From Promethearchaeota archaeon (GTDB taxonomy: Archaea > Asgardarchaeota > Lokiarchaeia > Sigyniarchaeales > SOKP01), in NCBI GenBank assembly GCA_016840165.1, contig JAEOSU010000103.1, forward strand, positions 1 through 14,285: a stretch of 14,285 nucleotides of DNA. The letters run 5' to 3'. Positions 1 to 14,142 of this stretch are shown piece by piece (position 1 is the stretch's first letter; every line of letters begins with the position of its first letter). A model generated the notes under the pieces. That model saw only the letters and a program-made list of their open reading frames with translations. It ran no database searches and was not told the origin of the DNA. The position numbers and the translations under genes were made by a program.

Positions 1-1079
1 ATTTTGTTTGGTTTTTTCATTCTACTCGCAATCTGCTTTGGATGAAGTTCCCATGGTTTCATTTCCTCAGGGTCTTTAGCTCGATTCTTTTTATAATCCT
101 CTGCCATCCTATTAATTCTATTAACTGTATAATCCAATTCTTCTTGTGTCTGAGCCCAACATTCCCAATTCATCCACCATTTGGGGACTCCAATCTTTTT
201 AAAAAACTCATAGTTATGGGGTACTTTATCTTTAGGCCATTTTGCCATGACTAGAGGATAGTTTCCACCTTGGACCATTACGGTGTGATGGGAAATACCA
301 AATTCTTGCTTCCCTACTTCGAGAGTTAAATTCTGCATATCAAGAGGGTTTGACATTCCCCATGCTACAATGGTTTTATGCTTTGGATGAGGATAAATTT
401 TCACAGCTGCTTTAGTTACAACCCCAAATGCTCCCTGAGAGCCCATTAAGAAACTCCACATATCAGGACCAATGCCGTATTTATAAAAAGGCTTAGCAAA
501 TGGTAATGCCCAAGAACCAGTTCTTACTACATCACCGTTAGGAAATACAATCTCCGCACACATAAAATTATCGCCTTGCGGTCCAACAGAGCTAGTATAT
601 AGTGTAAAACCACGATCTATAGCATCTCCCATTACAGTTGCTGCAGGAGGAGCCCCATCAGCAATAGGAGGAGCCCAATCGGAGTGATATTTGTGCATAT
701 ACGACCAAAGTGCTCCATTAGTAACCCCTGGCTCAATAATTGCATACCGGTTTTCCTCATCGATTTCAATGATTCTATCCATTCTACTTAGATCTAAAAG
801 GACTCCACCAGGTTTAATGGTAGGGCACGCAAACCCTCCCGATAATCCTGCAGAAACCGGACTTACTGCAATTTTTTCAGCGGTGCAATATATCAATATT
901 TTGCGTATTTCTTCCGGATACTTAGGTCGTACTACGATATCCGGGATTTGGGATTCTAAACCCATGACTGATTTAGCAAGATATGAGGCAGTGATTGCCT
1001 TATTATTGGTAGCATAATTCTTGCCGACAATACCGATCATGGCTTCTAAATCTTTCTCATCTGGAAGTTTATAGCTCAT
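1..1079 (-). CDS. FAD-binding oxidoreductase, PCMH/VAO (GlcD / p-cresol methylhydroxylase flavoprotein-like) family; 3' end runs off the window
   Basis: Not in the ORF track because it has no stop in the window. Manual translation from ATG at 1079 stays open to position 1: MSYKLPDEKDLEAMIGIVG...PDIVVRPKYPEEIRKIL...GGVLLDLSRMDRIIEIDEENRYAIIEPGVT...EIVFPNGDVVRTGSWALP...YGIGPD...GSQGAFGVVTKAAVKIYP. These are typical FAD_binding_4/PCMH motifs. Confidence 0.9.
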   Translation of the reverse strand, partial: MSYKLPDEKDLEAMIGIVGKNYATNNKAITASYLAKSVMGLESQIPDIVVRPKYPEEIRKILIYCTAEKIAVSPVSAGLSGGFACPTIKPGGVLLDLSRMDRIIEIDEENRYAIIEPGVTNGALWSYMHKYHSDWAPPIADGAPPAATVMGDAIDRGFTLYTSSVGPQGDNFMCAEIVFPNGDVVRTGSWALPFAKPFYKYGIGPDMWSFLMGSQGAFGVVTKAAVKIYPHPKHKTIVAWGMSNPLDMQNLTLEVGKQEFGISHHTVMVQGGNYPLVMAKWPKDKVPHNYEFFKKIGVPKWWMNWECWAQTQEELDYTVNRINRMAEDYKKNRAKDPEEMKPWELHPKQIASRMKKPNK

Positions 1080-1310
1080 AACTATTAACCTTTTAATCAA
1101 TCTTCATATTTTTTGATTTTTTTAATAATGTAAAATATTATTTTGGAAAATTCACTACTAAATTTTAAATTTCGTAATATAAATTTCCAATTAAAATAAC
1201 ATTTTCTCTTATACCATTAATTATGATGTCTTAAAAAGGCGATTTATATTTATAATCAGTTTGATCTAACTAAAAATAGTAATTACCCAACAATATCCAA
1301 TTTAATAGCT

Positions 1311-1676
1311 TTAACTTCCATTATGAACGCGTTCAATTTCTTTATGTAAAGCAGTAATTGCGAATGGTTTTTCAATAAAGGAACTCGCACCAATAGATAA
1401 AGCCTTATTTGCAATCGATTTATCTGCACTGGTGAAAATAATTTTGGTATGGGAGTTCAAATTGAGAATTTCAATTGAAGCTTCAATCCCATTTTTCAAT
1501 GGCATGCGGTGATCCATTAAAATGATGTCTGGCTTTAATGGCATTGAAATAAATAGCTCGACCGCATCCTTCCCATTGCTTGCTTTTCCTATTACCTCAA
1601 ATCCAAAAGTAATAAGCATCATCTCATATAATCTTTGGAGGGATAGATCATCTTCTACTATTAAAACTCTAATCAT
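1311..1676 (-). CDS. Stand-alone response regulator receiver (CheY-like)
   Basis: VLIVEDD acidic pocket, phosphoacceptor in ILMDHRMP, FTSAD and KPF are all intact. It overlaps the kinase stop by 8 nt and has a strong RBS. Confidence 0.95.
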   Translation of the reverse strand: MIRVLIVEDDLSLQRLYEMMLITFGFEVIGKASNGKDAVELFISMPLKPDIILMDHRMPLKNGIEASIEILNLNSHTKIIFTSADKSIANKALSIGASSFIEKPFAITALHKEIERVHNGS

Positions 1677-3573
1677 TAGCCATCACCTCCGGAAGTAAAA
1701 TAACAAAATTACTACCTTTCGAATGATCTCCAGCAATTTTGTCTTCGACCCAAATCTCCCCTTTATATAAGTTTAAGATTTTTTTTACTAATGTTAATCC
1801 AAGTCCTAATCCACTGACGAATTCTTTAGCATTATATCCTCGTTGAAATATTTTGTCTTTCATTTTATCAGGGATGCCAATTCCATTATCAATAAAGTCT
1901 AGTTTTACAAAATTTCCATCATTTTTTTTCATTTTTGAAATATTGATAATAATTTTAATTAACTGGTTTCGGTTGTATCGGATTGCATTGATTATAATAT
2001 TTTCAAATAAATCCGAAAGTAATTGATTAGCGTAAACACTTATTTTCTTGTAAGGTGAATTAATAATTATTTCGACATTTTTATCATGAAAACTTTTTAT
2101 AATGAATTCACGAACGTTGTGTAAAACTTTGAGCGCATTGACTTTTTCTATATTGAAAGATAAATCTTCAACATCAGATAAAGTACGCACATTAGAAACC
2201 AAGTTAGATCCTCGATTAACTTGATCTTTAATAATACTCAAAAGCTCACGGCTTTCCTCAGGGAGAGATTTATCTATGACTTTTAAATTCAATAAATCAA
2301 TTGCAGATAATATATTCTGAAGGATATTATTAATATCATGAGCAAAAAGATCCTTATAGAATTCCGAACGATTAAAAGACTTTCGATATTTGATTTCGGA
2401 TTCTTTTAATTTCTCCTCAGTTTCCTTCTTTTCTGTAATATCTTTAATGATAAATTGGATAAGGCTTTCATCCATGATCTTAATTAAAGATACAGATGCC
2501 ATCACCCAAATCCTATTACCGGTAGTACGAAATATTGGAAATGTGAAATCCTTAACTATCTCTCCATTAATAACTTTTTCTATTATTTTTTTAAAACGAG
2601 GTATTAAATGGATATTTCCCTGATTGAGCGATAAAATTTCTGTAAAATTTTTGTCAATTAAGTCCTCTATCTTATGATAGGATAGAATATTTTTAGTTGC
2701 TAAGTTACAATCGAGTAATTTACCATTAGTATCAATAAGAAAAATAGAATAGGGAGAACTATTAAACAATTCTTGATATTTCAATTGTGTTTTCTTGAGA
2801 TTTTCTTCTGCCTTTTTAATTTGAGTTATTTCTTTCGTTATTTCTACCGCAGCAACCACTTTTCCTTTCTCATTAAAAACAGGATAACCTCTTATCTGCC
2901 ATATGCGATTATCAGGTGTATTTATTTCTCCAGAAGTAGGATTACGTATCCTTATTGCTTCGATAACTGGACATCCCTCACATGGAGAGTCTCTTCGGGG
3001 CCATATTTCATAGCATTTTCTTCCCATTAGATTATGAATCTTTAAACCTACAGAATCCGCAGCTGCTTTATTTGTCCATAATATTTTATTATTCAAATCT
3101 TGGTATACAATATGTTCACTTATGCTTTCTAAGATTATGGATTTCTCTTGTTCCTCTTTTCTGAGTGTTTTTTCAATTATCTTCTTTTTGGTAATATCCT
3201 CTGTAAATACGATGACTAAATCAGGAGGAATATATATAAAAGTTGCTATAAACGCTTTATTTTTTACTAAAGGTTCAAAACCGTATCGAATTTCTTTACA
3301 GTAATTTAATCTATTATCAAAGCAATTATGGATATCGATTGAAATCATTGAATCTTTATCAAATATGGAAGATAATTTCTTTCCTAAATAAGAATCAATG
3401 TTACCTTTACTGAGGATGTTTAACGCTTTATTATAATTAACTAAATAAAAATCATTATCTTCTTTTTTCCAAATATAGGAGGGGATTGGAGTAGATATAT
3501 AAATTGATTTAAAAGCCTCATAATCTAATTCAATATTCTCATCTAAATCATTCATAACGAGATGATCAACCAA
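1669..3573 (-). CDS. Cytoplasmic multi-PAS (about 3 PAS/PAC) sensor histidine kinase
   Basis: PAS/PAC repeats end in EDITKKK, KEITQIK and KDITEKK. H-box LFAHDINNILQ, N-box FENIIINAIRY, G1 DNGIGIPD, G2 GLGLGL. No TM helix. The start may be the ATG a few codons downstream of the TTG. Confidence 0.95.
   Translation of the reverse strand: MVDHLVMNDLDENIELDYEAFKSIYISTPIPSYIWKKEDNDFYLVNYNKALNILSKGNIDSYLGKKLSSIFDKDSMISIDIHNCFDNRLNYCKEIRYGFEPLVKNKAFIATFIYIPPDLVIVFTEDITKKKIIEKTLRKEEQEKSIILESISEHIVYQDLNNKILWTNKAAADSVGLKIHNLMGRKCYEIWPRRDSPCEGCPVIEAIRIRNPTSGEINTPDNRIWQIRGYPVFNEKGKVVAAVEITKEITQIKKAEENLKKTQLKYQELFNSSPYSIFLIDTNGKLLDCNLATKNILSYHKIEDLIDKNFTEILSLNQGNIHLIPRFKKIIEKVINGEIVKDFTFPIFRTTGNRIWVMASVSLIKIMDESLIQFIIKDITEKKETEEKLKESEIKYRKSFNRSEFYKDLFAHDINNILQNILSAIDLLNLKVIDKSLPEESRELLSIIKDQVNRGSNLVSNVRTLSDVEDLSFNIEKVNALKVLHNVREFIIKSFHDKNVEIIINSPYKKISVYANQLLSDLFENIIINAIRYNRNQLIKIIINISKMKKNDGNFVKLDFIDNGIGIPDKMKDKIFQRGYNAKEFVSGLGLGLTLVKKILNLYKGEIWVEDKIAGDHSKGSNFVILLPEVMAND
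1683..1690 (-). promoter_or_regulatory. Archaeal Shine-Dalgarno GGAGGTGA, 6 nt upstream of the receiver ATG
   Basis: Minus strand reads GGAGGTGA-TGGCTA-ATG. Confidence 0.8.
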
Positions 3574-3715: not shown

Positions 3716-4516
3716 TTATTTTAAGAATCTTTTTGAAGATAAGCGAGTTCCAAGAAACATAAAAAATAATGAAAAGATTAATGTCAAAGGTAACTGCCCT
3801 AAGACAATATATACGAAATTAGGTTCAGCAGAGACAGAATATAATGCAATCGAAATAACAAAATGAATTAGAGAATTCAGAAGCGCAATTTTCCAATTAG
3901 GTGATAAATAACCTAAAATCAAGTTTGGGAGTAAGAATGAGAGAATTATATTCGCAGTTGACAGTAAAATTAAAGCTGGCATAAATCTAGTAAATAATTG
4001 CTCGGGAGTAAGTAATCGATTTAAATTTAGAGTTTCATATATAAATATAGTAGCAAAGATGCTTAAAAAAATGAGAAATGGAGAAAGTGGTCCGACTAGT
4101 ATCCAAGATAAAAATAATCTCCAAAAAGGAGATCTCAAAGTTTTTCCTCTGAGATTATTATTTATTACTTTTTCCATATCCTCCTGAATGATTAATTCGG
4201 GATTATAATCAGGGGCATATAAATTAACAAATTCTAATAAAATACCCCTTAAAATAGAAGAGACTAACTCATTATTGTCATTAGAACTTACAATTGCAGC
4301 CCCCAATATATTTTCCTCATCTATCGGAAATAAAATAAGTTTATTATTTTCTCCAAGATCCACATTCTTTACAATGCTATTTAAAGCTTCTCGGCTGAAA
4401 TTAGCTACTGATGTGAAAAATCCTATAAGAATGTTTTCATCATATTGTTCTTTCATGAAATTTTTGGAATAGAGTAAAAAACCTTGTTCAACTAAAATAT
4501 ATATACTTTTTAACAT
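3716..4516 (-). CDS. Longin-like N-terminal domain plus about 4 transmembrane helices
   Basis: The N-terminus MLKSIYILVEQGFLLYSKNF...ENILIGFFTSVANFSREAL...NKLILF...ILGAAIVSSNDN...ILRGILLEFVNLY follows the beta-beta-alpha-beta-beta-beta-alpha longin pattern (recognised by eye). Four hydrophobic segments lie C-terminally. ATG at 4516 follows AGAGGG and is preferred over the TTG at 4540. Confidence 0.75.
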   Translation of the reverse strand: MLKSIYILVEQGFLLYSKNFMKEQYDENILIGFFTSVANFSREALNSIVKNVDLGENNKLILFPIDEENILGAAIVSSNDNNELVSSILRGILLEFVNLYAPDYNPELIIQEDMEKVINNNLRGKTLRSPFWRLFLSWILVGPLSPFLIFLSIFATIFIYETLNLNRLLTPEQLFTRFMPALILLSTANIILSFLLPNLILGYLSPNWKIALLNSLIHFVISIALYSVSAEPNFVYIVLGQLPLTLIFSLFFMFLGTRLSSKRFLK

Positions 4517-4536
4517 TTTATTCCCTCTTTTTAATT

Positions 4537-6261
4537 TCAATTATAATCTTCAATTTTTTTCTTATCAACAAACTCAATATATTCACTTAAAGTTGCTTTT
4601 GTTTTCTTAAAACTAAATAAGTTCGCTCCAAATAATTCAGTTAATCGAACTATCAAAATATTTGGATTATCTTTCACAAATATTTTAAATTTTTCCATCC
4701 TTCGTTCTTCTATAATCAAATCTACATCCCTCAAATTATACATCTGTCTTATTTTATCCTCTTGAGGATTGTTTAACTCAAGATTAATAATTTCACCATT
4801 ATAGGGTAATTTTTTTATTAAATCATCATAAGTCCCGATATTAGCTTCCTTTTTACTTATTGTTAATATCTGATTGCAATTGCTTACTACTCCTTCAGGT
4901 GCATGAAAAATAAGAACGATATTGAAGTCTTTTTTTATGATATCCATATAATTATTAAATTTCTCAAAATCTAACCGTCCTAAGATTCCAAAAGGCACTG
5001 AAAACATAATGATTGAAGGTGCTTGTAGTAAAGCTCTCCCTATTGAGAATAAAAGAAATTCTAATGGAGTTAATTCTGAAAACCTCTTACTTTTTTTATT
5101 TAATAACCCCGTAACATCTAAAGCGTGCTTTAAAAATTCCTTCTTCTTATTAATTCTTTTTGGTACTCCCGCAATGATATCACTCATGATCTCATCAAAT
5201 CTTGGACTTATACCCGCATTTTTTAAAGTCTCATCTATTTCTCTTTTTTTCTGCTTTAAAATCGCGTCTATATTGATATTGTATTGGATGGCTTTTTTTA
5301 ATTTCATATTCATTATTTTTGAATCATAAGCTTCAGGCAAAATGAAAATAGATTGTTTTTCTTTTTTAGAAAGTAATTGTACAAAACGTCCGAAAACTTG
5401 AATAGTACCTGAAAAATCTTTATAGTTGCCTTTTATCGCTTCAAATAAATCCAATAATTCAATTCTATTATCGGTATTTTTTAAAACCTCTTCATCGAAT
5501 ATAATTCCTAGTGATTTACCTCTATGGATGTTGAATGAAATGTTTTTAATTTGTTCTTGAATACGTAAATTAGTCAAAACTAAGTGTTGTGAATTTAGTT
5601 TCAATGGATCGATATTCACTCTTTTTGCAATTATGCTACAAATGCTATCTACAATCTCATAAATATGAAGTGGATTAACTTCATTCCAGCCTTTAATTAT
5701 CTCTTGCTCATAAAATTCTTTCGCACTCATTATTCTTGCTAGATCCTTCGAAAATGAAATCGTTGGTAGCAAAGGATATTTTTCAAAATTAATCTTTAGC
5801 GAAATAACAAAATTTGGAAAATAAATACATATCTTTCTATGAAAAGGAACATTATTGATGGTATAGTTTTCGTACTTTTGATCTATTAGGTTAACTTCTT
5901 CACTTAAAATCTCTAAGTGTTTTCGAAATTCTCTTCGAATCAATTTTCTCATGCGAGAAATGATTTTTATAGGACTTATAAGCCCATCTTCATCAAAATC
6001 AGGCTCAAAGAGGATCTTATTAAAATCAACTTCATCCTCTATTGGTGTGTAAATTTTAAGAAGAGGTACCCCTTTTTCTAAAACTTCTTTATTAGTAAAG
6101 AATAGTACTTCAAAAAATGATTTCTTATAAATTAAATTCACGATAGAGGCAATACCAAACGTATCTTCTCGATAGGTGATCCAAAATTTCTTTGAAAACC
6201 TTATAGCATCGAGGATTTTGGCTCTTAGTCTTTCTTTCTCGGAAACATTATAACTCTTCAA
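4537..6261 (-). CDS. RWD/UEV (E2-like fold) domain(s) fused to a degenerate ABC ATPase domain
   Basis: LKINFEKYPLLPTISF...GWNEVNPLHIYEIVDSI matches the YPxxP / W..p..I..I UBC/RWD pattern. The ABC scaffold is recognisable (KNISFNIHRGKSLGII, FSGTIQVFG, SIGRALLQAPSII, LIFH), but Walker A, LSGGQ and the Walker B DE are lost. The TTG start has an upstream GGAGGT and overlaps the previous gene. Confidence 0.75.
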   Translation of the reverse strand: MKSYNVSEKERLRAKILDAIRFSKKFWITYREDTFGIASIVNLIYKKSFFEVLFFTNKEVLEKGVPLLKIYTPIEDEVDFNKILFEPDFDEDGLISPIKIISRMRKLIRREFRKHLEILSEEVNLIDQKYENYTINNVPFHRKICIYFPNFVISLKINFEKYPLLPTISFSKDLARIMSAKEFYEQEIIKGWNEVNPLHIYEIVDSICSIIAKRVNIDPLKLNSQHLVLTNLRIQEQIKNISFNIHRGKSLGIIFDEEVLKNTDNRIELLDLFEAIKGNYKDFSGTIQVFGRFVQLLSKKEKQSIFILPEAYDSKIMNMKLKKAIQYNINIDAILKQKKREIDETLKNAGISPRFDEIMSDIIAGVPKRINKKKEFLKHALDVTGLLNKKSKRFSELTPLEFLLFSIGRALLQAPSIIMFSVPFGILGRLDFEKFNNYMDIIKKDFNIVLIFHAPEGVVSNCNQILTISKKEANIGTYDDLIKKLPYNGEIINLELNNPQEDKIRQMYNLRDVDLIIEERRMEKFKIFVKDNPNILIVRLTELFGANLFSFKKTKATLSEYIEFVDKKKIEDYN

Positions 6262-9200
6262 CTTTTGGAACCTCCATTGCTTTATATCTAAAGTATTGTT
6301 CCATTTTGGAATCAGTTTGTTTAATATTTAAAATAGAGCCTATTCCCATTTCCTCCTCGATAAGTTTTTGTAGTTCGATAAGATTTAGGTTAGAAAATAA
6401 AGAAAAATCGGTTCCTGCCTTATTCTCAAGGACTTTTTCAATCCCTGGAAGTAATTCAAGTCGTCTTATCGCATTATCTTTTACTTCAGTAAAGCATATT
6501 TCTATAGATCTCCCCTTACCCGGAAGTTGAATTAATAAATCCTTTGGTTTACCAAAATCTAACATTCCTCGGTTCCTTCCGAATATCGCAACATCAGTGC
6601 AGAATCGGGATTCTTCAGGATAATGTGTAATCACGATTAATGTAGTTTTATATTGTTCATTTATTTTTGTTAAGGTCAACCATAAATTCTCTCTTATAAT
6701 TGGATCTAATCCGGAAGTAGGTTCATCTAAAATTAGGAGAATTGGATTGTGAATAAGTCCAATTGCGATACTCACCCTCCTTTTTTGACCGCCTGAGAGA
6801 TTCTTTACTAACTCATCAATTTTATCTTCTATCTCAAGACTTCGGAGGATCCTACGTGCTTTACGGATAATCTCCTTTTCTGATAGCCCATATTGTTTTC
6901 CAAAATGCAATATATTATCAAGTGTGGTAAAATTTTGGTAAATCTTTCCTAAGTCCTGAGGTACATATCCATATATTGGACGAATTCTTCTTGAATTTCT
7001 TTTATTTATTGGAAGACCGTAAATTTCGCAGAATCCAGTAACTTTTCGCATACCTAACAATCCTTTTATGAAAGTAGATTTTCCCGCTCCACTCTCACCT
7101 AAGATACCTAGTATTCTCCCATGTTCAATATTCATTGAAACTGCATCAACAATTAGTTTCCCTCCCGCAAATACACTTAAATTTTCACAATTAATTGCTG
7201 GAAAATTTTGGAGATACGATGGTGAAAGTTTACTCCCAAAACCTAACATTAGTTTTATTTTCTGAGGAATAGAAAGTCGCTGATAGAGTTTATACAGAAT
7301 GAACAAGGCAATACATCCTGCTTCAATATAGAGTATATAGGTCAAAAGTTGATTCCACGGTTTAAAATCAAATGATTGTTCATATCTTAACTCTTCAACT
7401 ATAATTATCCCATATGGTGTATTTCTTAGATCACCACCAAACCCTGGAGTATCTCCTATTCCTCCAGTCGTAAAACTTATGCACTCTCTAAACCATAAAA
7501 GTGCTTCTTGAATATTTTCCGGCTGATATCGGTAATCATATAAAGCTTTCGAAGCTAAATATGAAAAAAGAAAAGTTGATGGTAATTCAAAATACATGCC
7601 AATTGCGGGTAATAAAGCGAAACTTCCATCTTCACTTTGACTATTTTTCAAAAATTCAATTACAGCTATTTTCGAAATAGGTTCATTTTGAAAGATTTCA
7701 TTAAAAATCTCAAGACCATAATAGGTAGAAACAATATCACTATAGAATCCAACAACTATAGAAAATCCTCCATCCGCATTTTGACATGCCCGTATCCAGT
7801 GTGTGAGATTATCATTATTAATATAATTAATAGTATCCAAATTTTTAAGAGAAATCAAAGCCCAGTATGTAGATTCAACAGTAGAAACATTAGAGTTAAC
7901 GAAATTTTGGAAAAAACCAAAATATGGTCCAAAGAGAGATAATAAATAATCCAAATCATTAGCTACTCGAAAACCTCCATCATCATTTTGTAGCCCAACC
8001 AAAAATTGAGACATTGTGGCGATCTTCGAAGTTGAGAACCAAAGATCAGATAATGGATATAGAATTCGGTATATATTTATTGCGCAATAAGTTGAAAATA
8101 GTGTTGCGTTTAATCCAGGGCGAGAACCGAACCCGCCATCATAAGAGTTAAAACATAAATCTACAAAAAATAAAATATTATCGCGTTGAGACTTCGAGGT
8201 ATAACCCTCTAAATTATATTCATTCAAAGCTAATGTTCCAAAATAGTTTGATTCAATGGTTATTTGGCCAAAAAGTGAATTTTTAGCTTGAAATCGATGA
8301 GTCCAATTATAATAACTGGAGCGATAAAAAGTATAAGGGAAGATTATTGGAAATGCTTCAAGAATATTTAATGATTTCATTGCTGCCCATCCTGAGTTAA
8401 AATCAGAATCAACCATCGGATCAGGAGTTAATCCGAATCCACCATCGATTTTCCTACAACTAGCAATAAAATTTAAGGTACGAGTTTCATTGAAAAACGG
8501 TATAGATAAATTTAAGAGTTCGATAGAGGCTAGTGAATAATAAGTTGATTGAATATCAGACGTTTCTCCTAAAATAGAAGCAAATCCACCATCTAAATTA
8601 TAAAGTGTAGTAAAGTAAGACTCTATAGCTACTTTTTCTATAATAGAATAGCTCATATTCATTCCTAAGAATGCTTGAATCCCATAGAATGTAGTCATTG
8701 GATTTTGAACAAAACTGTTATTCGTTAATAAATATCCACTGCCAGACCAAGTGGAATTAATGAATTTAGATATATTGGAATTCAATAATATGTTTTCAGC
8801 ACTTAATTGATAAGCAATATCAATCGCACTGAAGGTTGAGATGATATCCGATGTATTTATCAAGGGTGTCGCTTTGAAACCGTAACCTCCATCATTTAAT
8901 ACTAATTCCAAATATATTTTTATCTGGTCAGTTTCATTATTCAACATTTTCTCTTCGAGGTATGTTTTATTAGCCAAAGAAATGGTTTTAATTGCAAAGT
9001 ATGTAGATTCGATATTCCCTAAGCCTCCAATATCCGAATATGAACCATCTGTATTCTGTTTTTCAAAAATATAATCAAAAAAGAACCAAGGATTTTTACT
9101 TTTTATCTGAACTGTCGTTATATAATTTGGGTTTATTAGTGCCGGTGAGCTTTCTTCTGCTAAGGTAAAATTGATAGAATCAATCGCTCGAAAATTGCTT

Positions 9201-9415
9201 TCGATAGCAGGCTCAACAAAAAGTCCATCATCATTTTGGTGGCTAAGAGTGAATTTCACTGCATTGGATTTAACAAATTCTACTTCATTCTCAGTAAGAT
9301 AAGAAACGAAACGTGTATTGATTAAAATTAACGTGACAACTGGAGTACCAATTAAAATTAAAAAGATAAACAGATACTTTAATCGTCGTTTTCTTACTCT
9401 ATTTAGCTTGAAAAT
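6248..9415 (-). CDS. Membrane-anchored prenyltransferase/squalene-oxidase (alpha/alpha toroid) repeat protein fused to an intact ABC ATPase; about 1055 aa if started at ATT 9415
   Basis: Repeats include YNLDGGF, CRKIDGGFG, LQNDDGGF, CQNADGGF and SQSEDGSF, each followed by 'STYxA'-type helices. TM LLTYILYIEAGCIALFILY. Walker A GESGAGKST, Q-loop GYVPQ, LSGGQ, LILDEPTSGLD, H-loop ITH. The frame is open 52 codons upstream of the GTG at 9259 and encodes a basic-plus-hydrophobic signal anchor. Confidence 0.88.
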   Translation of the reverse strand: MFKLNRVRKRRLKYLFIFLILIGTPVVTLILINTRFVSYLTENEVEFVKSNAVKFTLSHQNDDGLFVEPAIESNFRAIDSINFTLAEESSPALINPNYITTVQIKSKNPWFFFDYIFEKQNTDGSYSDIGGLGNIESTYFAIKTISLANKTYLEEKMLNNETDQIKIYLELVLNDGGYGFKATPLINTSDIISTFSAIDIAYQLSAENILLNSNISKFINSTWSGSGYLLTNNSFVQNPMTTFYGIQAFLGMNMSYSIIEKVAIESYFTTLYNLDGGFASILGETSDIQSTYYSLASIELLNLSIPFFNETRTLNFIASCRKIDGGFGLTPDPMVDSDFNSGWAAMKSLNILEAFPIIFPYTFYRSSYYNWTHRFQAKNSLFGQITIESNYFGTLALNEYNLEGYTSKSQRDNILFFVDLCFNSYDGGFGSRPGLNATLFSTYCAINIYRILYPLSDLWFSTSKIATMSQFLVGLQNDDGGFRVANDLDYLLSLFGPYFGFFQNFVNSNVSTVESTYWALISLKNLDTINYINNDNLTHWIRACQNADGGFSIVVGFYSDIVSTYYGLEIFNEIFQNEPISKIAVIEFLKNSQSEDGSFALLPAIGMYFELPSTFLFSYLASKALYDYRYQPENIQEALLWFRECISFTTGGIGDTPGFGGDLRNTPYGIIIVEELRYEQSFDFKPWNQLLTYILYIEAGCIALFILYKLYQRLSIPQKIKLMLGFGSKLSPSYLQNFPAINCENLSVFAGGKLIVDAVSMNIEHGRILGILGESGAGKSTFIKGLLGMRKVTGFCEIYGLPINKRNSRRIRPIYGYVPQDLGKIYQNFTTLDNILHFGKQYGLSEKEIIRKARRILRSLEIEDKIDELVKNLSGGQKRRVSIAIGLIHNPILLILDEPTSGLDPIIRENLWLTLTKINEQYKTTLIVITHYPEESRFCTDVAIFGRNRGMLDFGKPKDLLIQLPGKGRSIEICFTEVKDNAIRRLELLPGIEKVLENKAGTDFSLFSNLNLIELQKLIEEEMGIGSILNIKQTDSKMEQYFRYKAMEVPKVEEL

Positions 9416-10471
9416 ATTGCCTCACCCGTATTTAATAATAATTTATCCCTTTCTTCCTCTTCTTGAATTCTTATCTGGAAAAATCTTCGAAAACTGGCAA
9501 GATCACGACTCATGGAATTTACCGTCACTCCCCTTTCAATCATATACTGAATTAGTTGAGGTAAATTTTCTTCAAACGATTCCATCAAGACTTCTACGAC
9601 TTCATTACCCACTCGTAATACTTTTTTTACTGGCGGAAATTCTCTTATTCTGCTGATTTTTGCCTCGTTTAGATCATTTATTTCAAATCTTGCCACCAAA
9701 CCCTTGCTTGGTAATGAATTTACTAAATTTTGTGGGGAATCAAACTCTAACATACGTCCTTCTCTCAAAATAGCAGTTTTATCACAAATAAGAGCTGCCT
9801 CTAAATCATGAGTGATAATAAACATAGTAGTATTTAACTTCTGGTTGAGTTTCTTTAAATAACTAAGGATAGAATAGCGCTTGGACGCATCCACGCCTTA
9901 AACTCTATTAGTTTAAATAACTAAATAGTGTAGTTGGCTCATCTAAAAATAATACACTAGGTTTGTGAATAAGTCCAATCGCCATTGATAGCCTTTTCTT
10001 CTCGCCACCACTCATGTGTTTTACTCGTTTATTCCAAGTATCTTCTGGGATATCTAATATTTCAAATAATTCCTTGGCAATTTTCTTTGCTTCTTTATTA
10101 TCCAAACCGTATGTAGAACTAAACACTTCGACGTTTGCCATAGGACTTAGCTCATAGTAAAGATTTAATAATTCAAGTTGGGGGACATAACCTATATTCC
10201 TGAGTATCTTAGGATGATTTCTTTTATTTTTGGGTGATAATTCAGTAACCTTAACTTTCCCATTCCAGTTCTTCTTTTCTATTTGGCAAGTTAATACTCT
10301 GATAATAGTTGTCTTTCCCGCACCAGAGATTCCAAATAATCCTATGATCTCCCCTTTTTTAACTTCAAAGGATACATTGTGAACTATATGGCTTTTATCA
10401 AATATGACATTTAGATTCTTGACTTCAACCATTAAATCATTTGATTTAACACTTTTGTTCATTAGAATCAT
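9403..10471 (-). CDS. ABC transporter ATP-binding protein (DrrA/ABC-2 type with C-terminal extension), split by a 31-nt intron; exons 10471-9930 and 9898-9403; 345 aa after splicing
   Basis: Exon 1 has Walker A GISGAGKTT, Q-loop GYVPQ, signature MSGGE and Walker B VLFLDEPT. Exon 2 has the D-loop GVD and H-loop FIITHD. Removing 9899-9929 gives GAT GAG CCA ACT AC|A GGC GTG GAT = DEPTTGVD, colinear with the neighbouring paralog's DEPTSGLD. No other lesions were seen. Confidence 0.88.
9420..9426 (-). promoter_or_regulatory. Shine-Dalgarno GGTGAGG preceding putative ATT start at 9415
   Basis: Minus strand reads GGTGA-GGCAAT-ATT, the same 6-nt spacing as GGAGGTGA-6nt-ATG at 1676. Confidence 0.6.
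9854..9924. repeat. 13-bp exact direct repeat TTTAAATAACTAA at 9854-9866 (exon 2) and 9912-9924 (intron)
   Basis: Read directly from the sequence. Both copies are followed closely by ATAG on the plus strand. Confidence 0.8.
9899..9929 (-). other. Putative archaeal bulge-helix-bulge (BHB) mRNA intron, 31 nt
   Basis: The RNA reads GCC-AACU-AC^A-CUAUUUAGUUAUUUAAACUAAUAG-AGUU-UA^A-GGC. Exon helix GCC/GGC, 4-bp central helix AACU/AGUU, two 3-nt bulges ACA and UAA on opposite strands, and intron stem CUAUU(U)AGUU/AACUAAUAG. Cutting after the 2nd nucleotide of each bulge restores the reading frame exactly. Confidence 0.85.
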
Positions 10472-10559: not shown

Positions 10560-12830
10560 TTAAATCTTATCAATTAGACTATAAACTTTAGTCGAGCCTT
10601 TAGTTTTAGTATTAGGGTGCTTATCACAAACCTCAACGATTTTACTTGGAATTAATATTTCTTTAATAATTCTTGAAACATTTCCTGTTGTTCTTTCAAT
10701 TAAATATGCTAAATCTTTAACTGTAAACTCGTTATAACCCTTCTTTTTAATAATTTTTTTAATTAATTTAGGATAAATCAGAAGAATATCATCATTTTCT
10801 AATCTCTTCTTGTTATTGGTCATTTTTATATCAATATGCTTTAATTTTTCAAGGATTTCAGTATTTTTTTCTTTAAATTGAGTCATTAAAGTGTTCACCT
10901 TCTCTATTCCTTTTTTAGTAAATGAAAAATAATTTTGAGTCATATCTTTTAGATATGGTGAAATATTAGTTAAATATCCTTTTTCTAAAAGTTTGGATAT
11001 TGTATGATAAGCATTATGATAGTTGTTGTTAGAAATAATTTCAATATCTTTTGTTCTAAAGCTTTTTATTCCTTTTATATTTAATAAATGGTATATTTCA
11101 AGTATTTTAACTTTCCAAATTTTATTTGGAGGAATATCATATTTCAATGGGGAATTAAACTTGATTTTATCAATATTAAAAAAGAAATTAGAAACAGATT
11201 GCTCGAGATTTTTGACCAAACGAGCCATTTCTAAATTTAATTCAAGAAATTCTCCATCACTGAGAAACTTTTGCATGATATTCTTAAAATTACCAATATA
11301 ATTTGAATGCAATAAAGAATGACAATTTGAGCATAAGCATATACACTCTTCATTTATTAAAGTGTTCAAAATATCGACGCAATCTTGATCCTGTAAATCC
11401 TGCCATCTAGATTTCTTATTTAATGAGTTGTCTTTATGATGGAAATTCATACTCGCAAGATCATCTTTGATTTTTAATCCACATGCTACACATTCTCCGT
11501 TATATAATTGCTCTATAATATATCTTTTTCTTATCCATCTTTTGATTTGGTATTTAATTTTTGATTTTTCTCTATAGTTTTTATACTTTGGATGACTCAT
11601 AATTTCTTTATCTAATAATTTTTCAATTTCTTCTTGATTATGATGGAAAAGATCCGATTTCATAATCAAATCATTGAAGTCGTTAAGAAACTTCGCTTGC
11701 TCCTTAAGGTGACAGTTACCACATAAAGCAAGAATCCTTTCCTCAACAATCCATCTACTTAAGATTTTATAGCTTTTATGATTAATCTTTCTCCATGATT
11801 TTTTCTTCAATGCTGTTTTCTGATGATGGAATTCAAAAGAAGGTAAGTATAATAATGAAGTTGAACATTTACTACATTTTCCATCAAAAAACTCTAGCAG
11901 AAGCTTTAGCTTCTTACTTAATTCTCTTATACTTTTCTTTTGTACTCTGCAATTTTTACAAATAGAACGATAACTTTGTAATCCTCCTTTTTTACCTCTT
12001 TCTCCTCCATATTTGTCAAAAGCGCTTAATGGTAATATTTTGAAACAATAACCACATTTTTTCTGAGTTTGGGCAAAAGCGTAATTTTCGGAATGGTTAT
12101 CATTATTTTCCTCGACTATTTCATTCTCACTGTTAGGTTTTTTAGTATACGCATCGAATCCGTAATCTTTAAGATCCTTCCTGATTACATGAAAGAATTT
12201 GGGAATTTCAGGGACATCCCACATTTCCGAAATGATTCGAAAGGTATTGTTAATGATATAGCGCAGAAAGATGATAAAGTGCTCGCGGTATTGCTCATTC
12301 TCCTGGATTTTTTTCTGGAGTTGTTTTAAGTGCTCATAGAACTGGTTAATTGTAAGTTTATGAAGCTTTCCGAGAAAGTTGACCTTAATTTTTGCCCATG
12401 TGGTTGGTTCAAGGATGTGCTCAAGCTGGTCGAGCAGTTCTTTTGAAATGTCTCGGTTGCTATTTTTCAGAGCTTCAATATCATCGACTTTTTTGATGGC
12501 GAGATAGGTGATTCGCGAGAGGACGAGCATGAGGTTTTCTTTGAAGATGAGAGGGAACTCGGGGTCGAAGCCGATCTGGGTGATAGGATTTAGGTGGTAG
12601 GTTTCTTGTTTTCGCTTCTGCTTAGATTTTTTCTTTTTATGTTTCTTTTTAATATCTTTCTTCTTAGTTTCAGGCTCTTGCGTAGAGTGAATTCTCACTT
12701 CGGTGCCACATAATTCACAATAAACGGGTTCATCATCTTCCTCCAAGAGTTGACGTAAATCATCGTTAAATCGAGCGTTGCAATAGGAACATTGTCGTGG
12801 TAAGGATTTTTGTTTATTCTCAGAGGACAT
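10560..12830 (-). CDS. Multidomain Zn-ribbon / tandem HNH-like nuclease / winged-helix protein
   Basis: N-terminal CSYC...CELC Zn ribbon, Lys-rich linker, CGYC...CKNC finger. Two HNH-like repeats: CSKC...FEFHH...LCGNCH and CVAC...MNFHH...LCSNCHSLLH. Two wHTH-like segments: FRTKDI...ISKLLEKGYL and FTVKDLAYLIERTTGNVSRII. Confidence 0.8.
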   Translation of the reverse strand: MSSENKQKSLPRQCSYCNARFNDDLRQLLEEDDEPVYCELCGTEVRIHSTQEPETKKKDIKKKHKKKKSKQKRKQETYHLNPITQIGFDPEFPLIFKENLMLVLSRITYLAIKKVDDIEALKNSNRDISKELLDQLEHILEPTTWAKIKVNFLGKLHKLTINQFYEHLKQLQKKIQENEQYREHFIIFLRYIINNTFRIISEMWDVPEIPKFFHVIRKDLKDYGFDAYTKKPNSENEIVEENNDNHSENYAFAQTQKKCGYCFKILPLSAFDKYGGERGKKGGLQSYRSICKNCRVQKKSIRELSKKLKLLLEFFDGKCSKCSTSLLYLPSFEFHHQKTALKKKSWRKINHKSYKILSRWIVEERILALCGNCHLKEQAKFLNDFNDLIMKSDLFHHNQEEIEKLLDKEIMSHPKYKNYREKSKIKYQIKRWIRKRYIIEQLYNGECVACGLKIKDDLASMNFHHKDNSLNKKSRWQDLQDQDCVDILNTLINEECICLCSNCHSLLHSNYIGNFKNIMQKFLSDGEFLELNLEMARLVKNLEQSVSNFFFNIDKIKFNSPLKYDIPPNKIWKVKILEIYHLLNIKGIKSFRTKDIEIISNNNYHNAYHTISKLLEKGYLTNISPYLKDMTQNYFSFTKKGIEKVNTLMTQFKEKNTEILEKLKHIDIKMTNNKKRLENDDILLIYPKLIKKIIKKKGYNEFTVKDLAYLIERTTGNVSRIIKEILIPSKIVEVCDKHPNTKTKGSTKVYSLIDKI

Positions 12831-12851
12831 ATTATATATTTTAGCTGAATC

Positions 12852-12859
12852 TATTTAAA
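12852..12859 (-). promoter_or_regulatory. Candidate TATA box TTTAAATA for the HNH-protein gene
   Basis: It lies 22-29 nt upstream of ATG 12830. No SD is present, consistent with a leaderless mRNA. Confidence 0.45.
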
Positions 12860-13053
12860 GAAAAACTTAAAATCATCCCTCAATATGAGAGCATGGAATA
12901 TATTTTAAGCATAAGAACTTTACACTAACCAATACAGCTTTTTTGGAGAATCAGATTGAAGAGCAAGAGAACTATGATACCTCGTTGGATATTGAGGATA
13001 AGTTCTTACAAAATTATAAAAAATATAGTTTATATAGGAGGAGAAAATAAGAA

Positions 13054-13311
13054 ATGACCGAAATAGAAAGGGAAATTCGAGGATTAGGGGATTCTGAAAG
13101 AAAAGTGAGGGTTTGCTTCAAATGTCGAGAATATGTCAATATTCCAAATAGAAATCCGATCTATGAGCAATATTTACAGAATTTTGATGCGATGCATCAT
13201 TTACATCCTGTACAAACTGTAAATGAATCGGAATTATTAGAAACAAAACCATGCGAAAAACCCTATATCCGAAGAAAACTCATCGAATTTTATAAAGAAA
13301 AAAAGCTCTAA
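13054..13311 (+). CDS. Small putative zinc-binding protein (CxxC...HxxH)
   Basis: VCFKCREY...FDAMHHLHPVQTV; RBS AGGAGG upstream. Confidence 0.75.
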   Translation: MTEIEREIRGLGDSERKVRVCFKCREYVNIPNRNPIYEQYLQNFDAMHHLHPVQTVNESELLETKPCEKPYIRRKLIEFYKEKKL

Positions 13312-13752: not shown

Positions 13753-13767
13753 TAGGTGAGAAAAAGT

Positions 13768-14142
13768 ATGAAAAAACCTCAGTATGACATTCTTCTCGTA
13801 AATGATGATCCAGGTATACTAAATCTCGTAGAGAAAATGCTCAACCTTAAAGAAATAACATGCAAAACAATGCTTGATGGGAGTGAAGTATTGAAAGAAT
13901 TAGACGAATATCAACCTAAAGTTGTAGTGTTAGATGAGATAACACCTGGTATAAATGGAGATGGTTATCGTCTTTGTAAACAAATAAAAACAAATCCAAA
14001 ATTGAACCACATTCCCGTTTTTATTTTTGGTCATGAATGGCTGATAAAACAAAATTTAGACTGTAAAGCAGATGGGTATATCCCTTATCCCTTTGACTTT
14101 ACCGATTTCGATCCCATTATCGAACAAGTGAGAAAAAAATGA
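13768..14142 (+). CDS. Atypical stand-alone receiver domain
   Basis: ILLVNDDPG...PKVVVLDEITPG...GYRLCKQIKTNPKLNHIPV...ADGYIPYPFD. ATG 13768 follows AGGTGAG; the ORF track's GTG start lies inside this RBS. Confidence 0.85.
   Translation: MKKPQYDILLVNDDPGILNLVEKMLNLKEITCKTMLDGSEVLKELDEYQPKVVVLDEITPGINGDGYRLCKQIKTNPKLNHIPVFIFGHEWLIKQNLDCKADGYIPYPFDFTDFDPIIEQVRKK

Follow-up and report, generated by a model that had tools for sequence, protein, structure and literature searches.

The window analysed here is a complete contig of 14,285 bp (C98) from the genome of a Promethearchaeota archaeon, which comprises 3.6 Mb in 105 contigs with a G+C content of about 30%. Four co-directional genes on its minus strand, located between positions 3716 and 10471 and designated P1, P2, P3 and NBD1, appear to be the distal part of a six-gene operon, restricted to Lokiarchaeia-type Asgard archaea, that encodes a decorated ATP-binding cassette (ABC) transporter of the ABC-2 type; sequence comparisons give this reading a probability of about 0.6. 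That the operon has an ABC-2 transporter core with permeases is very probable on the same kind of evidence. The core belongs to a known class of ABC-2 exporters, and the whole is a real, conserved, lineage-specific variant of it. Peculiar to the window genome are the displaced permeases, a candidate bulge-helix-bulge (BHB) intron in NBD1 and a non-canonical start of P3. The features of the cluster are as follows.

P1: 3716-4516, minus strand; longin domain (aa 1-127 counted from ATG 4516) and four transmembrane (TM) helices; 266 aa
P2: 4537-6261, minus strand; N-terminal two-module alpha/beta region of ~220 aa, catalytically dead DrrA-type nucleotide-binding domain (NBD) and DrrA-like C-terminal domain; 574 aa, TTG start
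P3: 6248-~9415 (probable start), minus strand; signal-anchor TM helix, ectodomain of ~655 aa, second TM helix and canonical DrrA-type NBD; 14-nt overlap with the start of P2
NBD1, whole gene: 9403-10471, minus strand; DrrA-type ABC ATPase in two exons
NBD1 exon 1: 9930-10471, minus strand; Walker A, Q-loop, signature and Walker B
NBD1 exon 2: 9403-9898, minus strand; last base of a Thr codon, D-loop GVDA, H-loop, DrrA-like C-terminal domain and stop
BHB (tRNA-endonuclease type) intron candidate: 9899-9929, minus strand; 31 nt, within NBD1 between Walker B and the D-loop

Permease genes and conservation of the cluster

Many metagenome-assembled genomes of Lokiarchaeia-type Promethearchaeota contain homologues of P1 and of P2, the latter with 53-94% identity. 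The gene order perm1-perm2-NBD1-P3-P2-P1 was found in seven loci (L006, L007, L008, L012, L013, L021 and L025), and locus L023 begins inside perm2 and continues in the same order. The same gene set with an insertion after perm2 is present in L009/L010 and L011; L020, L022 and L026 are rearranged, yet retain the permeases, NBD1, P3 and P2. The genes stay together in the distant clusters (L020-L023, L025 and L026), where P2 identity is 23-41%, and the permeases are still part of rearranged clusters with P2 identities down to 23-27%. Some 12 loci extend far enough upstream for the permeases to be checked, and two permease genes are present in every one. The remaining loci are too short for this check: the contigs of L014-L016 and L027 stop within NBD1 or just beyond its upstream end, those of L024 and L028 are short, and L029 comprises P1 and part of P2 only; L027 and L028 run from P2 to a partial NBD1, where the contig ends. 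In L018, the 4.4 kb retrieved upstream of NBD1 contain no permease.

The permeases belong to PF12698/PF01061 and consist of TM1, a loop of about 150 aa and TM2-6. The pair adjoins the NBD1 gene, with an insertion between them in a few loci. No permease gene lies within the window; the source genome carries a single orthologous pair on another contig (C79:49389-51762), with 71% and 66% identity to the permeases of L006. Permease 2 is followed there (C79:51780-51850) by a 20-codon remnant of the NBD1 N-terminus (MVDVKNLNVVFDKKQIIYDV, then a stop), which differs from the start of the full NBD1 on C98, and beyond this stub the opposite strand carries two ribbon-helix-helix-like open reading frames (ORFs), after which the contig ends with a receiver-domain ORF. 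The position of the relatives' permeases is occupied in the window by a 756-aa ORF, which is also found upstream of NBD1 in the relatives with 94% identity (L014-L016), whose contigs end inside it. A stretch of 808 nt in this ORF is 85% identical to C63:162733-163539, and the ORF probably represents a repeated, mobile gene by which the operon was split. The absence of the permeases from the window is thus due to a local insertion and a contig break. A search of the genome for a second copy of the cluster found none.

These data bear on a preliminary description of the four genes as an unusual ABC system that lacks a canonical permease and may serve lipid/isoprenoid handling, mechanotransmission or trafficking rather than classical transport. 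Its coordinates and gene order for four tightly linked genes were correct, and the missing permease was a true observation for the window. It does not extend to the system, in which two ABC-2 permeases occur at every sufficiently long related locus and have orthologues on C79, where the search for an orphan permease suggested in that description ended. Since ABC-2 permeases are clustered with NBD1 in relatives and the NBDs are of the DrrA type, the suggestion that this is not a classical transporter fails, and the permease-less reading is refuted.

A survey of 400 species genomes of the phylum detected P2 in 90 of them and the P3 ectodomain in 86. The two sets are almost identical, about 85 genomes having both, and wherever loci were compared the two genes lie next to each other on a single contig. 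The family of the window genome accounts for most of them (P2 in 78 and the P3 ectodomain in 75 of 134 genomes); a few occur in other families of the class, and none were found in most other families of the phylum in this set. The conservation across Asgard genomes on which the preliminary description had staked its proposal was borne out, the inert NBD, the longin-TM protein and the fusion of a prenyltransferase-like ectodomain with an NBD being co-conserved.

Every gene is under purifying selection, with ratios of nonsynonymous to synonymous differences (pN/pS) of about 0.05-0.2 in comparisons with L014, L011, L012 and L009. The pN/pS values against L014, which shares with the window the insertion of the 756-aa ORF, the NBD1 insert and the odd start of P3, are 0.024/0.203 for P3, 0.026/0.118 for P2, 0.022/0.151 for P1 and 0.009/0.165 for NBD1 exon 1. 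Selection on all four genes indicates that the system is probably still in use.

Proteins encoded by the cluster

P3 matches the Prenyltrans family PF00432 (E 7e-35, 121 bits versus a cut-off of 26.5) in two tandem regions located between two TM helices (residues 14-32 and 690-708), in agreement with the large prenyltransferase-repeat ectodomain recognised earlier. Its C-terminal part matches PF00005 (E 1e-25), has canonical Walker A, Q-loop, signature, Walker B, D-loop and H-loop motifs, and has drrA (TIGR01188, E 1e-43) as its best NCBIfam model. The nearest solved sequences are the beta subunits of RabGGTase and FTase (RabGGTase-beta, E 1e-16), the similarity being limited to repeat motifs: residues 42-188 of the RabGGTase beta chain are aligned in register, and a second stretch merely repeats the motif. 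P3 thus resembles prenyltransferase beta subunits and terpene cyclase toroids in its toroid repeat motifs, which exceed the Pfam cut-off, and in having RabGGTase beta as its best PDB sequence match; it differs from them in consisting of two tandem partial toroids, predicted to lie outside the cell between two TM helices. No prenyltransferase alpha subunit is encoded in the cluster, and it is very unlikely that the toroid is a protein prenyltransferase. Among public entries, the P3 architecture was found in Promethearchaeota only.

The ectodomain is acidic (69 D+E versus 37 K+R) and contains 2.1 N-x-S/T sequons per 100 aa, compared with 0.5-0.9 in the cytoplasmic parts and 3-4.6 in the permease loops. 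The two TM helices, the acidity and the sequon enrichment shared with the permease loops suggest that this 655-aa region is extracellular.

The sole canonical start codon of P3, GTG 9259, would cut off the signal anchor that is conserved at its N-terminus. Upstream of this codon the frame stays open as far as position 9421, which is 19 nt ahead of the NBD1 stop; it encodes basic residues and then the TM helix, with no ATG, GTG or TTG upstream of the anchor. This TM helix is kept in eight orthologues, several of which also have no canonical start; L009, L012 and L014 have no ATG, GTG or TTG at the aligned position, the P3 of L012 having GTG-ATG four codons downstream, still before the TM helix, and that of L014 a TTG inside it. 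A GGTGA resembling a Shine-Dalgarno (SD) sequence precedes a conserved ATT/ATA at this position, and translation probably starts at ATT 9415, which is preceded by the motif GGGTGAGG.

P2 has the fold of a DrrA-type ABC ATPase in which Walker A, the signature and Walker B are all lost, so that none of the motifs of active ATPases (GxxGxGK[ST], the signature and the D-E of Walker B) is present. As both the P-loop and the signature are missing, a dimer of P2 with another NBD is predicted to form no complete ATP site. Residues 1-222 form two alpha/beta modules. In the second, a long helix precedes three strands, which are followed by an invariant E-x-Y-P-x-x-P turn, strand four and further helices (predicted elements: helix 97-129, strands 131-135, 138-147 and 152-158, YPLLP 162-166, strand 167-170, then helices), which is the UBC/RWD layout. 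A profile of the N-terminal region retrieved 40 proteins among 1.84 billion, the most distant of which carry Pfam RWD or UQ_con domains elsewhere in the chain, and a Foldseek search against viral models listed two E2 enzymes (E 9e-4 and 0.018). Pfam gave no match to this region at E<=10 in any of 32 members or subdomains, NCBIfam gave nothing, and alignment by hhalign with five Pfam-positive RWD segments had a probability of 0.1%. Against PDB sequences, a profile of residues 1-228 produced nothing beyond EF-hand noise below the threshold, located on the DFDEDG loop, the best score in an ESM Atlas feature search of residues 1-222 (0.78) was uninformative, and fold searches with the whole model returned lists filled by ABC ATPases, in which the N-terminal region was barely probed. 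A Pfam RWD scan of the source genome yielded a single match below the cut-off, elsewhere than P2. The RWD/UEV-like folds of the preliminary description are therefore supported by the topology, the YPxxP motif and the distant RWD/UQ_con profile matches, but not by Pfam or by hhalign against RWD segments; on balance, the region is rather likely to be UBC/RWD-like. Neither an invariant Cys in residues 1-228 nor an HPN motif, the E2 signature, was found in the P2 family, and without a conserved Cys the region is not an E2 enzyme.

Residues 87-99 of P2 (~5960-6000) form a near-invariant PDFDEDGxIxPxK loop that resembles the calcium loop of EF-hands and gives sub-threshold calmodulin matches. Position 12 of the loop is invariably Lys, not Glu or Asp, and therefore the loop is not a canonical calcium site.

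The N-terminal domain of P1 has the bb-a-bbb-a-a fold and matches solved longin domains. Four TM helices follow it after about 10 residues and there is no coiled-coil segment, which places P1 outside the longin SNAREs; Pfam and NCBIfam returned nothing for this protein. The longin-like four-TM protein of the preliminary description is thus confirmed. Judged solely from the count of four TM helices against six, P1 is not a standard ABC transmembrane domain; the fold-search lists were filled by its longin domain. Compared with eukaryotic longin proteins (VAMP7/Sec22/Ykt6, AP sigma/mu, TRAPP Bet5/Trs23 and SRX) and with the Asgard longin/roadblock proteins, P1 lacks both a SNARE and a coiled-coil segment, contains four TM helices rather than a single one, and has as its genomic partner an ABC-type pseudo-ATPase instead of a small GTPase. 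A complex prediction for full-length P2 and P1 using both alignments gave a score of 0.01, which counts neither for nor against binding.

The source genome encodes many longin-domain paralogues in other architectures. About ten other ORFs are matched by the P1 profile through the longin domain only (e.g. C43:26037-26474, C64:9941-10672 and C6:11870-12703).

The 31-nt insert in the NBD1 gene

NBD1 is read as two ORFs (9908-10471 and 9403-9897) with 31 nt containing in-frame stops between them. After removal of this insert, Walker A, Q-loop, signature, Walker B, D-loop and H-loop are all canonical. Exon 1 matches Pfam ABC_tran (E 2.7e-26) and has drrA (TIGR01188, E 4e-36) as its best NCBIfam model, and exon 2 aligns with positions 155-294 of the same model. 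Of the three NBDs listed in the preliminary description as two intact and one degenerate, the count and the canonical motifs of NBD1 and P3 stand; NBD1, however, is intact only without the insert.

The insert is interpreted as a BHB-type intron, and its splicing is predicted from comparative sequence data. The RNA can fold into a canonical hBHBh' structure with two 3-nt bulges around a 4-bp helix and flanking helices: the outer helix GCC/GGC is formed by 9938-9936 and 9897-9895, the central helix AACU/AGUU by 9935-9932 and 9904-9901, the bulges are ACA (9931-9929) and UAA (9900-9898), and the intron stem has 7 bp. The energy of this fold is -8.8 kcal/mol versus a minimum free energy of -9.9. 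Cuts after the second base of each bulge would remove 9899-9929 and restore LDEPTTGVDASKRY in the window and in six related loci, so that LDEPTTGVD (DEPTT joined to GVD) is obtained in the window and in all six loci checked. The predicted spliced junction in the window, 9898/9930, reads CCAACUAC up to the joint and AGGC after it.

An insert at the identical site is present in L009/L017, L011, L014, L018 and L019, and absent from L006, L008 and L012. Its pattern was also matched in four species genomes of the same genus (G233, G239, G260 and G266), these being matches alone with their position unconfirmed; with pattern matches included, the insert occurs in 5 of 135 genomes of the family, all of one genus, and in about 5 of the 27 cluster-bearing species of that genus. 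It is identical at 30-31 of 31 nt among loci, compared with 61-86 of 90 nt in the flanks. The differences are confined to bulge 2, the loop, the bulged base of the intron stem or a change from U-A to a U.G wobble, and no base pair of helices H and h' is ever lost, the outer helix varying from GCC/GGC to ACC/GGU. The base that follows the 3' cut is A, G or U, which is a synonymous third position of the Thr codon.

Exon 2 has pN/pS values of 0.014/0.096 against L014, 0.062/0.719 against L011 and 0.185/0.848 against L009, and of 0.153/0.818 in a further comparison. L009, L011, L014 and L018 lack a start codon at the junction or close to it, as holds for most of the insert-bearing loci compared. 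Strong purifying selection on an exon without a start codon after the insert implies that exon 2 is translated. The same two observations exclude NBD1 as two separate polypeptides. An assembly error or recent damage is likewise rejected, since at least seven assemblies obtained independently have the insert at the same site and with conserved helices. For a translational bypass, no matching pair of take-off and landing codons was seen at the insert. The source genome encodes two paralogues of the tRNA splicing endonuclease EndA (tRNA_int_endo; C14:37158-37382 and C4:49673-49921) and one RtcB (C64:11156-12463). The two paralogues suggest a heteromeric EndA, a type known for accepting non-canonical introns.

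BHB introns in archaeal mRNAs have been documented for cbf5 of Crenarchaeota (PMC2738675). The NBD1 insert is similar to these in being short and located in an mRNA, in its hBHBh' geometry, in a length that is not a multiple of three, and in the restoration of a conserved motif upon excision; it differs in that the host is an ABC ATPase gene of an Asgard archaeon, the distribution is patchy within one genus, and it is known here from sequence alone. No description of BHB introns in Asgard mRNAs was found in the literature searched, the coverage of which was incomplete. On the comparative data, the insert is among the better-supported candidates for tRNA-type mRNA splicing outside Crenarchaeota.

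The presence of the insert is at odds with the gene tree, as it is lacking in L012 (76% P2 identity) and present in L009 (60%). In all four insert-bearing lineages examined, perm2 and NBD1 are separated or were not found together: PadR and HAAS genes lie between them in L011, about 1 kb in L009 and the 756-aa ORF in the window and L014, and L018 has no permease in the upstream region mentioned above.

Proposed function, alternatives and neighbouring genes

By homology and conservation, the core is a heterodimeric ABC-2 transporter (type V, DrrAB/NatAB-like) with two different 6-TM permeases, each bearing an outward loop of about 150 aa, and with two DrrA-type ATPases that are catalytically competent by motif, NBD1 and the C-terminal NBD of P3, which would form the working heterodimer. 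As P3 is predicted to cross the membrane twice, the ATPase would be covalently joined to an acidic, probably glycosylated double alpha/alpha-toroid domain outside the cell. Placed beside the permease loops, this domain may receive, hold or process the exported cargo, which would most likely be a hydrophobic, isoprenoid-bearing molecule. Handling of such cargo may be suggested by analogy, and the function of an exporter or extractor that hands lipid-like cargo to the toroid is a tentative proposal with somewhat less than an even chance. P2, apparently a duplicated DrrA-type ATPase no longer able to bind or hydrolyse ATP, could join P1 in a regulatory or scaffolding pair that lacks catalytic activity, is attached to the membrane and docks on, or competes for, an active NBD; we regard such a regulatory role of the two proteins as evenly balanced. 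In the source genome, the NBD1 mRNA would have to lose the 31-nt BHB intron through EndA and RtcB before translation.

The cluster resembles ABC-2 (type V) exporters of the DrrAB/NatAB/YbhFSR type in its DrrA-type NBDs and DrrA-like C-terminal domain (TIGR01188; ESM Atlas neighbours with DrrA1-3_C), in its ABC2_membrane_3-type permeases with TM1, a large outward loop and TM2-6, and in its operon organisation. Unlike these systems, it has two distinct permeases and two distinct active-type NBDs, one of which is fused behind a 2-TM hairpin bearing the ~655-aa ectodomain, and adds both a third NBD paralogue that has lost the motifs and a longin membrane protein. LptB2FG-LptC and MlaFEDB provide a working analogy only, each combining an ABC core with a bitopic accessory protein whose extracytoplasmic domain receives hydrophobic cargo; LptC and MlaD receive lipid from their ABC cores. 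There is no relation in sequence or fold, and in the present case an alpha/alpha toroid is fused to an NBD in an archaeon without an outer membrane. No description of the six-gene operon, and no described counterpart of the fused ectodomain-NBD subunit, the pseudo-NBD or the longin-4TM subunit, was found in the literature, within the incomplete coverage noted above. Public records name these proteins generically only.

An alternative is that NBD1, P3, P2 and P1 make up a self-sufficient machine for trafficking, mechanotransmission or lipid handling, with the two TM helices of P3 and the four of P1 as its membrane part. These would add up to six helices, and the four genes are together, intact and under purifying selection both here and in the relatives with 94% identity despite the non-adjacent permeases. 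Such a machine is improbable, because the permeases are clustered in every long-enough related locus, through changes of gene order and down to 23% P2 identity, the source genome keeps one orthologous permease pair, P1 is missing from some rearranged clusters, and NBD1 and the NBD of P3 are ordinary DrrA-type ATPases, the known partners of which are ABC-2 permeases. A system decaying in this genome has equally little probability. The repeated 756-aa ORF in place of the permeases, the NBD1 stub on C79, the in-frame stops in NBD1 and the absence of ATG, GTG or TTG ahead of the signal anchor of P3 could mean that a selfish gene broke the operon, that the frame of NBD1 and the start of P3 were lost, and that the window holds pseudogenes. 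However, the ORFs are otherwise uninterrupted, and the low pN/pS was obtained against L014, which has all three oddities; exon 2 is conserved at the protein level in four lineages in which no start codon follows the insert, which itself varies less than the exons and folds as a BHB, and the missing canonical start of P3 is shared by L009, L012 and L014, with the SD-like GGTGA before the conserved ATT/ATA.

It is also conceivable that the cluster is a flux- or ligand-sensing ABC module of the BceAB-BceRS type, signalling through a PAS histidine kinase and a receiver with the toroid ectodomain as its receptor. The layout of P3 (ectodomain, TM helix, cytoplasmic ATPase) is receptor-like, and the kinase and receiver genes directly follow P1 in the window and in L011, L012, L013 and L014, the receiver alone being present in L009. 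We consider this reading unlikely, since the pair is absent from L006, L008 and more distant clusters, the kinase has no TM segment, no contact was detected, and synteny extends to the surrounding genes (FAD_binding_4/CCG genes and one resembling acetyl-CoA synthetase), so that the adjacency may reflect inherited gene order. A signalling link to the kinase and receiver is thus possible but weak, the pair being conserved among close relatives only.

Several points weigh against the six-gene ABC-2 transporter as well. Its physical contacts, substrate and direction of transport are all deduced from sequence. P1 was not detected beside L020, L022, L026 or L027, and the pairing of P2 with P1 is therefore not universal. 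The toroid matches leave the Zn-ligand region unaligned and cover repeat motifs only, which makes isoprenoid binding an analogy. Neither P2 nor P3 was detected in 14 of the 41 congeneric species or in any of the five of a sister genus, including genomes reported as 100% complete, and this patchy occurrence indicates that the system is dispensable. Finally, the operon is physically disrupted in the source genome, its genes being divided between the contigs C79 and C98.

Discussions of the longin and E2/RWD-like folds in Asgard archaea usually treat them as forerunners of the trafficking and ubiquitin systems of eukaryotes; to our knowledge, almost none of them has a defined archaeal partner. 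By themselves, the known Asgard longin and UBC/RWD folds are no sign of trafficking. Here, one operon joins an ordinary ABC-2 pump to a membrane protein of the longin type and to a pseudo-ATPase bearing an E2-like region, a concrete candidate complex for study. The longin protein and the pseudo-ATPase might even act as a switch that gates the export of isoprenoid membrane lipids via the ABC-2 core to the toroid, although we regard this as a long shot. If true, 'trafficking' folds would steer the movement of membrane lipids through an ATPase-like partner instead of a small GTPase, the longin and E2-like eukaryotic signature domains would have had a pre-eukaryotic function, and tRNA-type splicing of the ATPase mRNA would add an expression gate in some lineages. 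The case also illustrates that contig breaks and insertions can mimic an ABC machine without a permease.

The following genes flank the cluster in the window.

FAD_binding_4 (GlcD-like) gene: 3-1100, minus strand; extends past the contig end
Stand-alone receiver: 1311-1676, minus strand; Pfam assignment, pairs with the histidine kinase downstream of P1
PAS-PAS histidine kinase, cytoplasmic: 1669-3573, minus strand; Pfam assignment, directly downstream of P1
756-aa Cys/His-rich ORF: 10560-12830, minus strand; at the relatives' permease position, outside the transporter proper
Stand-alone receiver-domain ORF: 13756-14142, plus strand; at the opposite contig end from the FAD_binding_4 gene

The FAD_binding_4 gene is syntenic with pairs of FAD_binding_4 and CCG genes located downstream of the cluster in L006, L008, L012 and L014. 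The 756-aa ORF, for which no family match was found in Pfam or NCBIfam, contains several CxxC...HH...CxxCH units (HNH-like by eye) and a winged-helix-like C-terminal part. Just upstream of permease 1 in most clusters lies a gene for a small protein of 140-190 aa with a zinc-ribbon-like CPxC...CxHH N-terminus and a conserved C-terminal MTLxEIYEEFWE (C79:48799-49299, L012:2965-3396, L009:1821-2246 and L008:2750-3274; in L006, at 12692-13261, it is downstream of P1). This protein may be a seventh member of the operon or its regulator.

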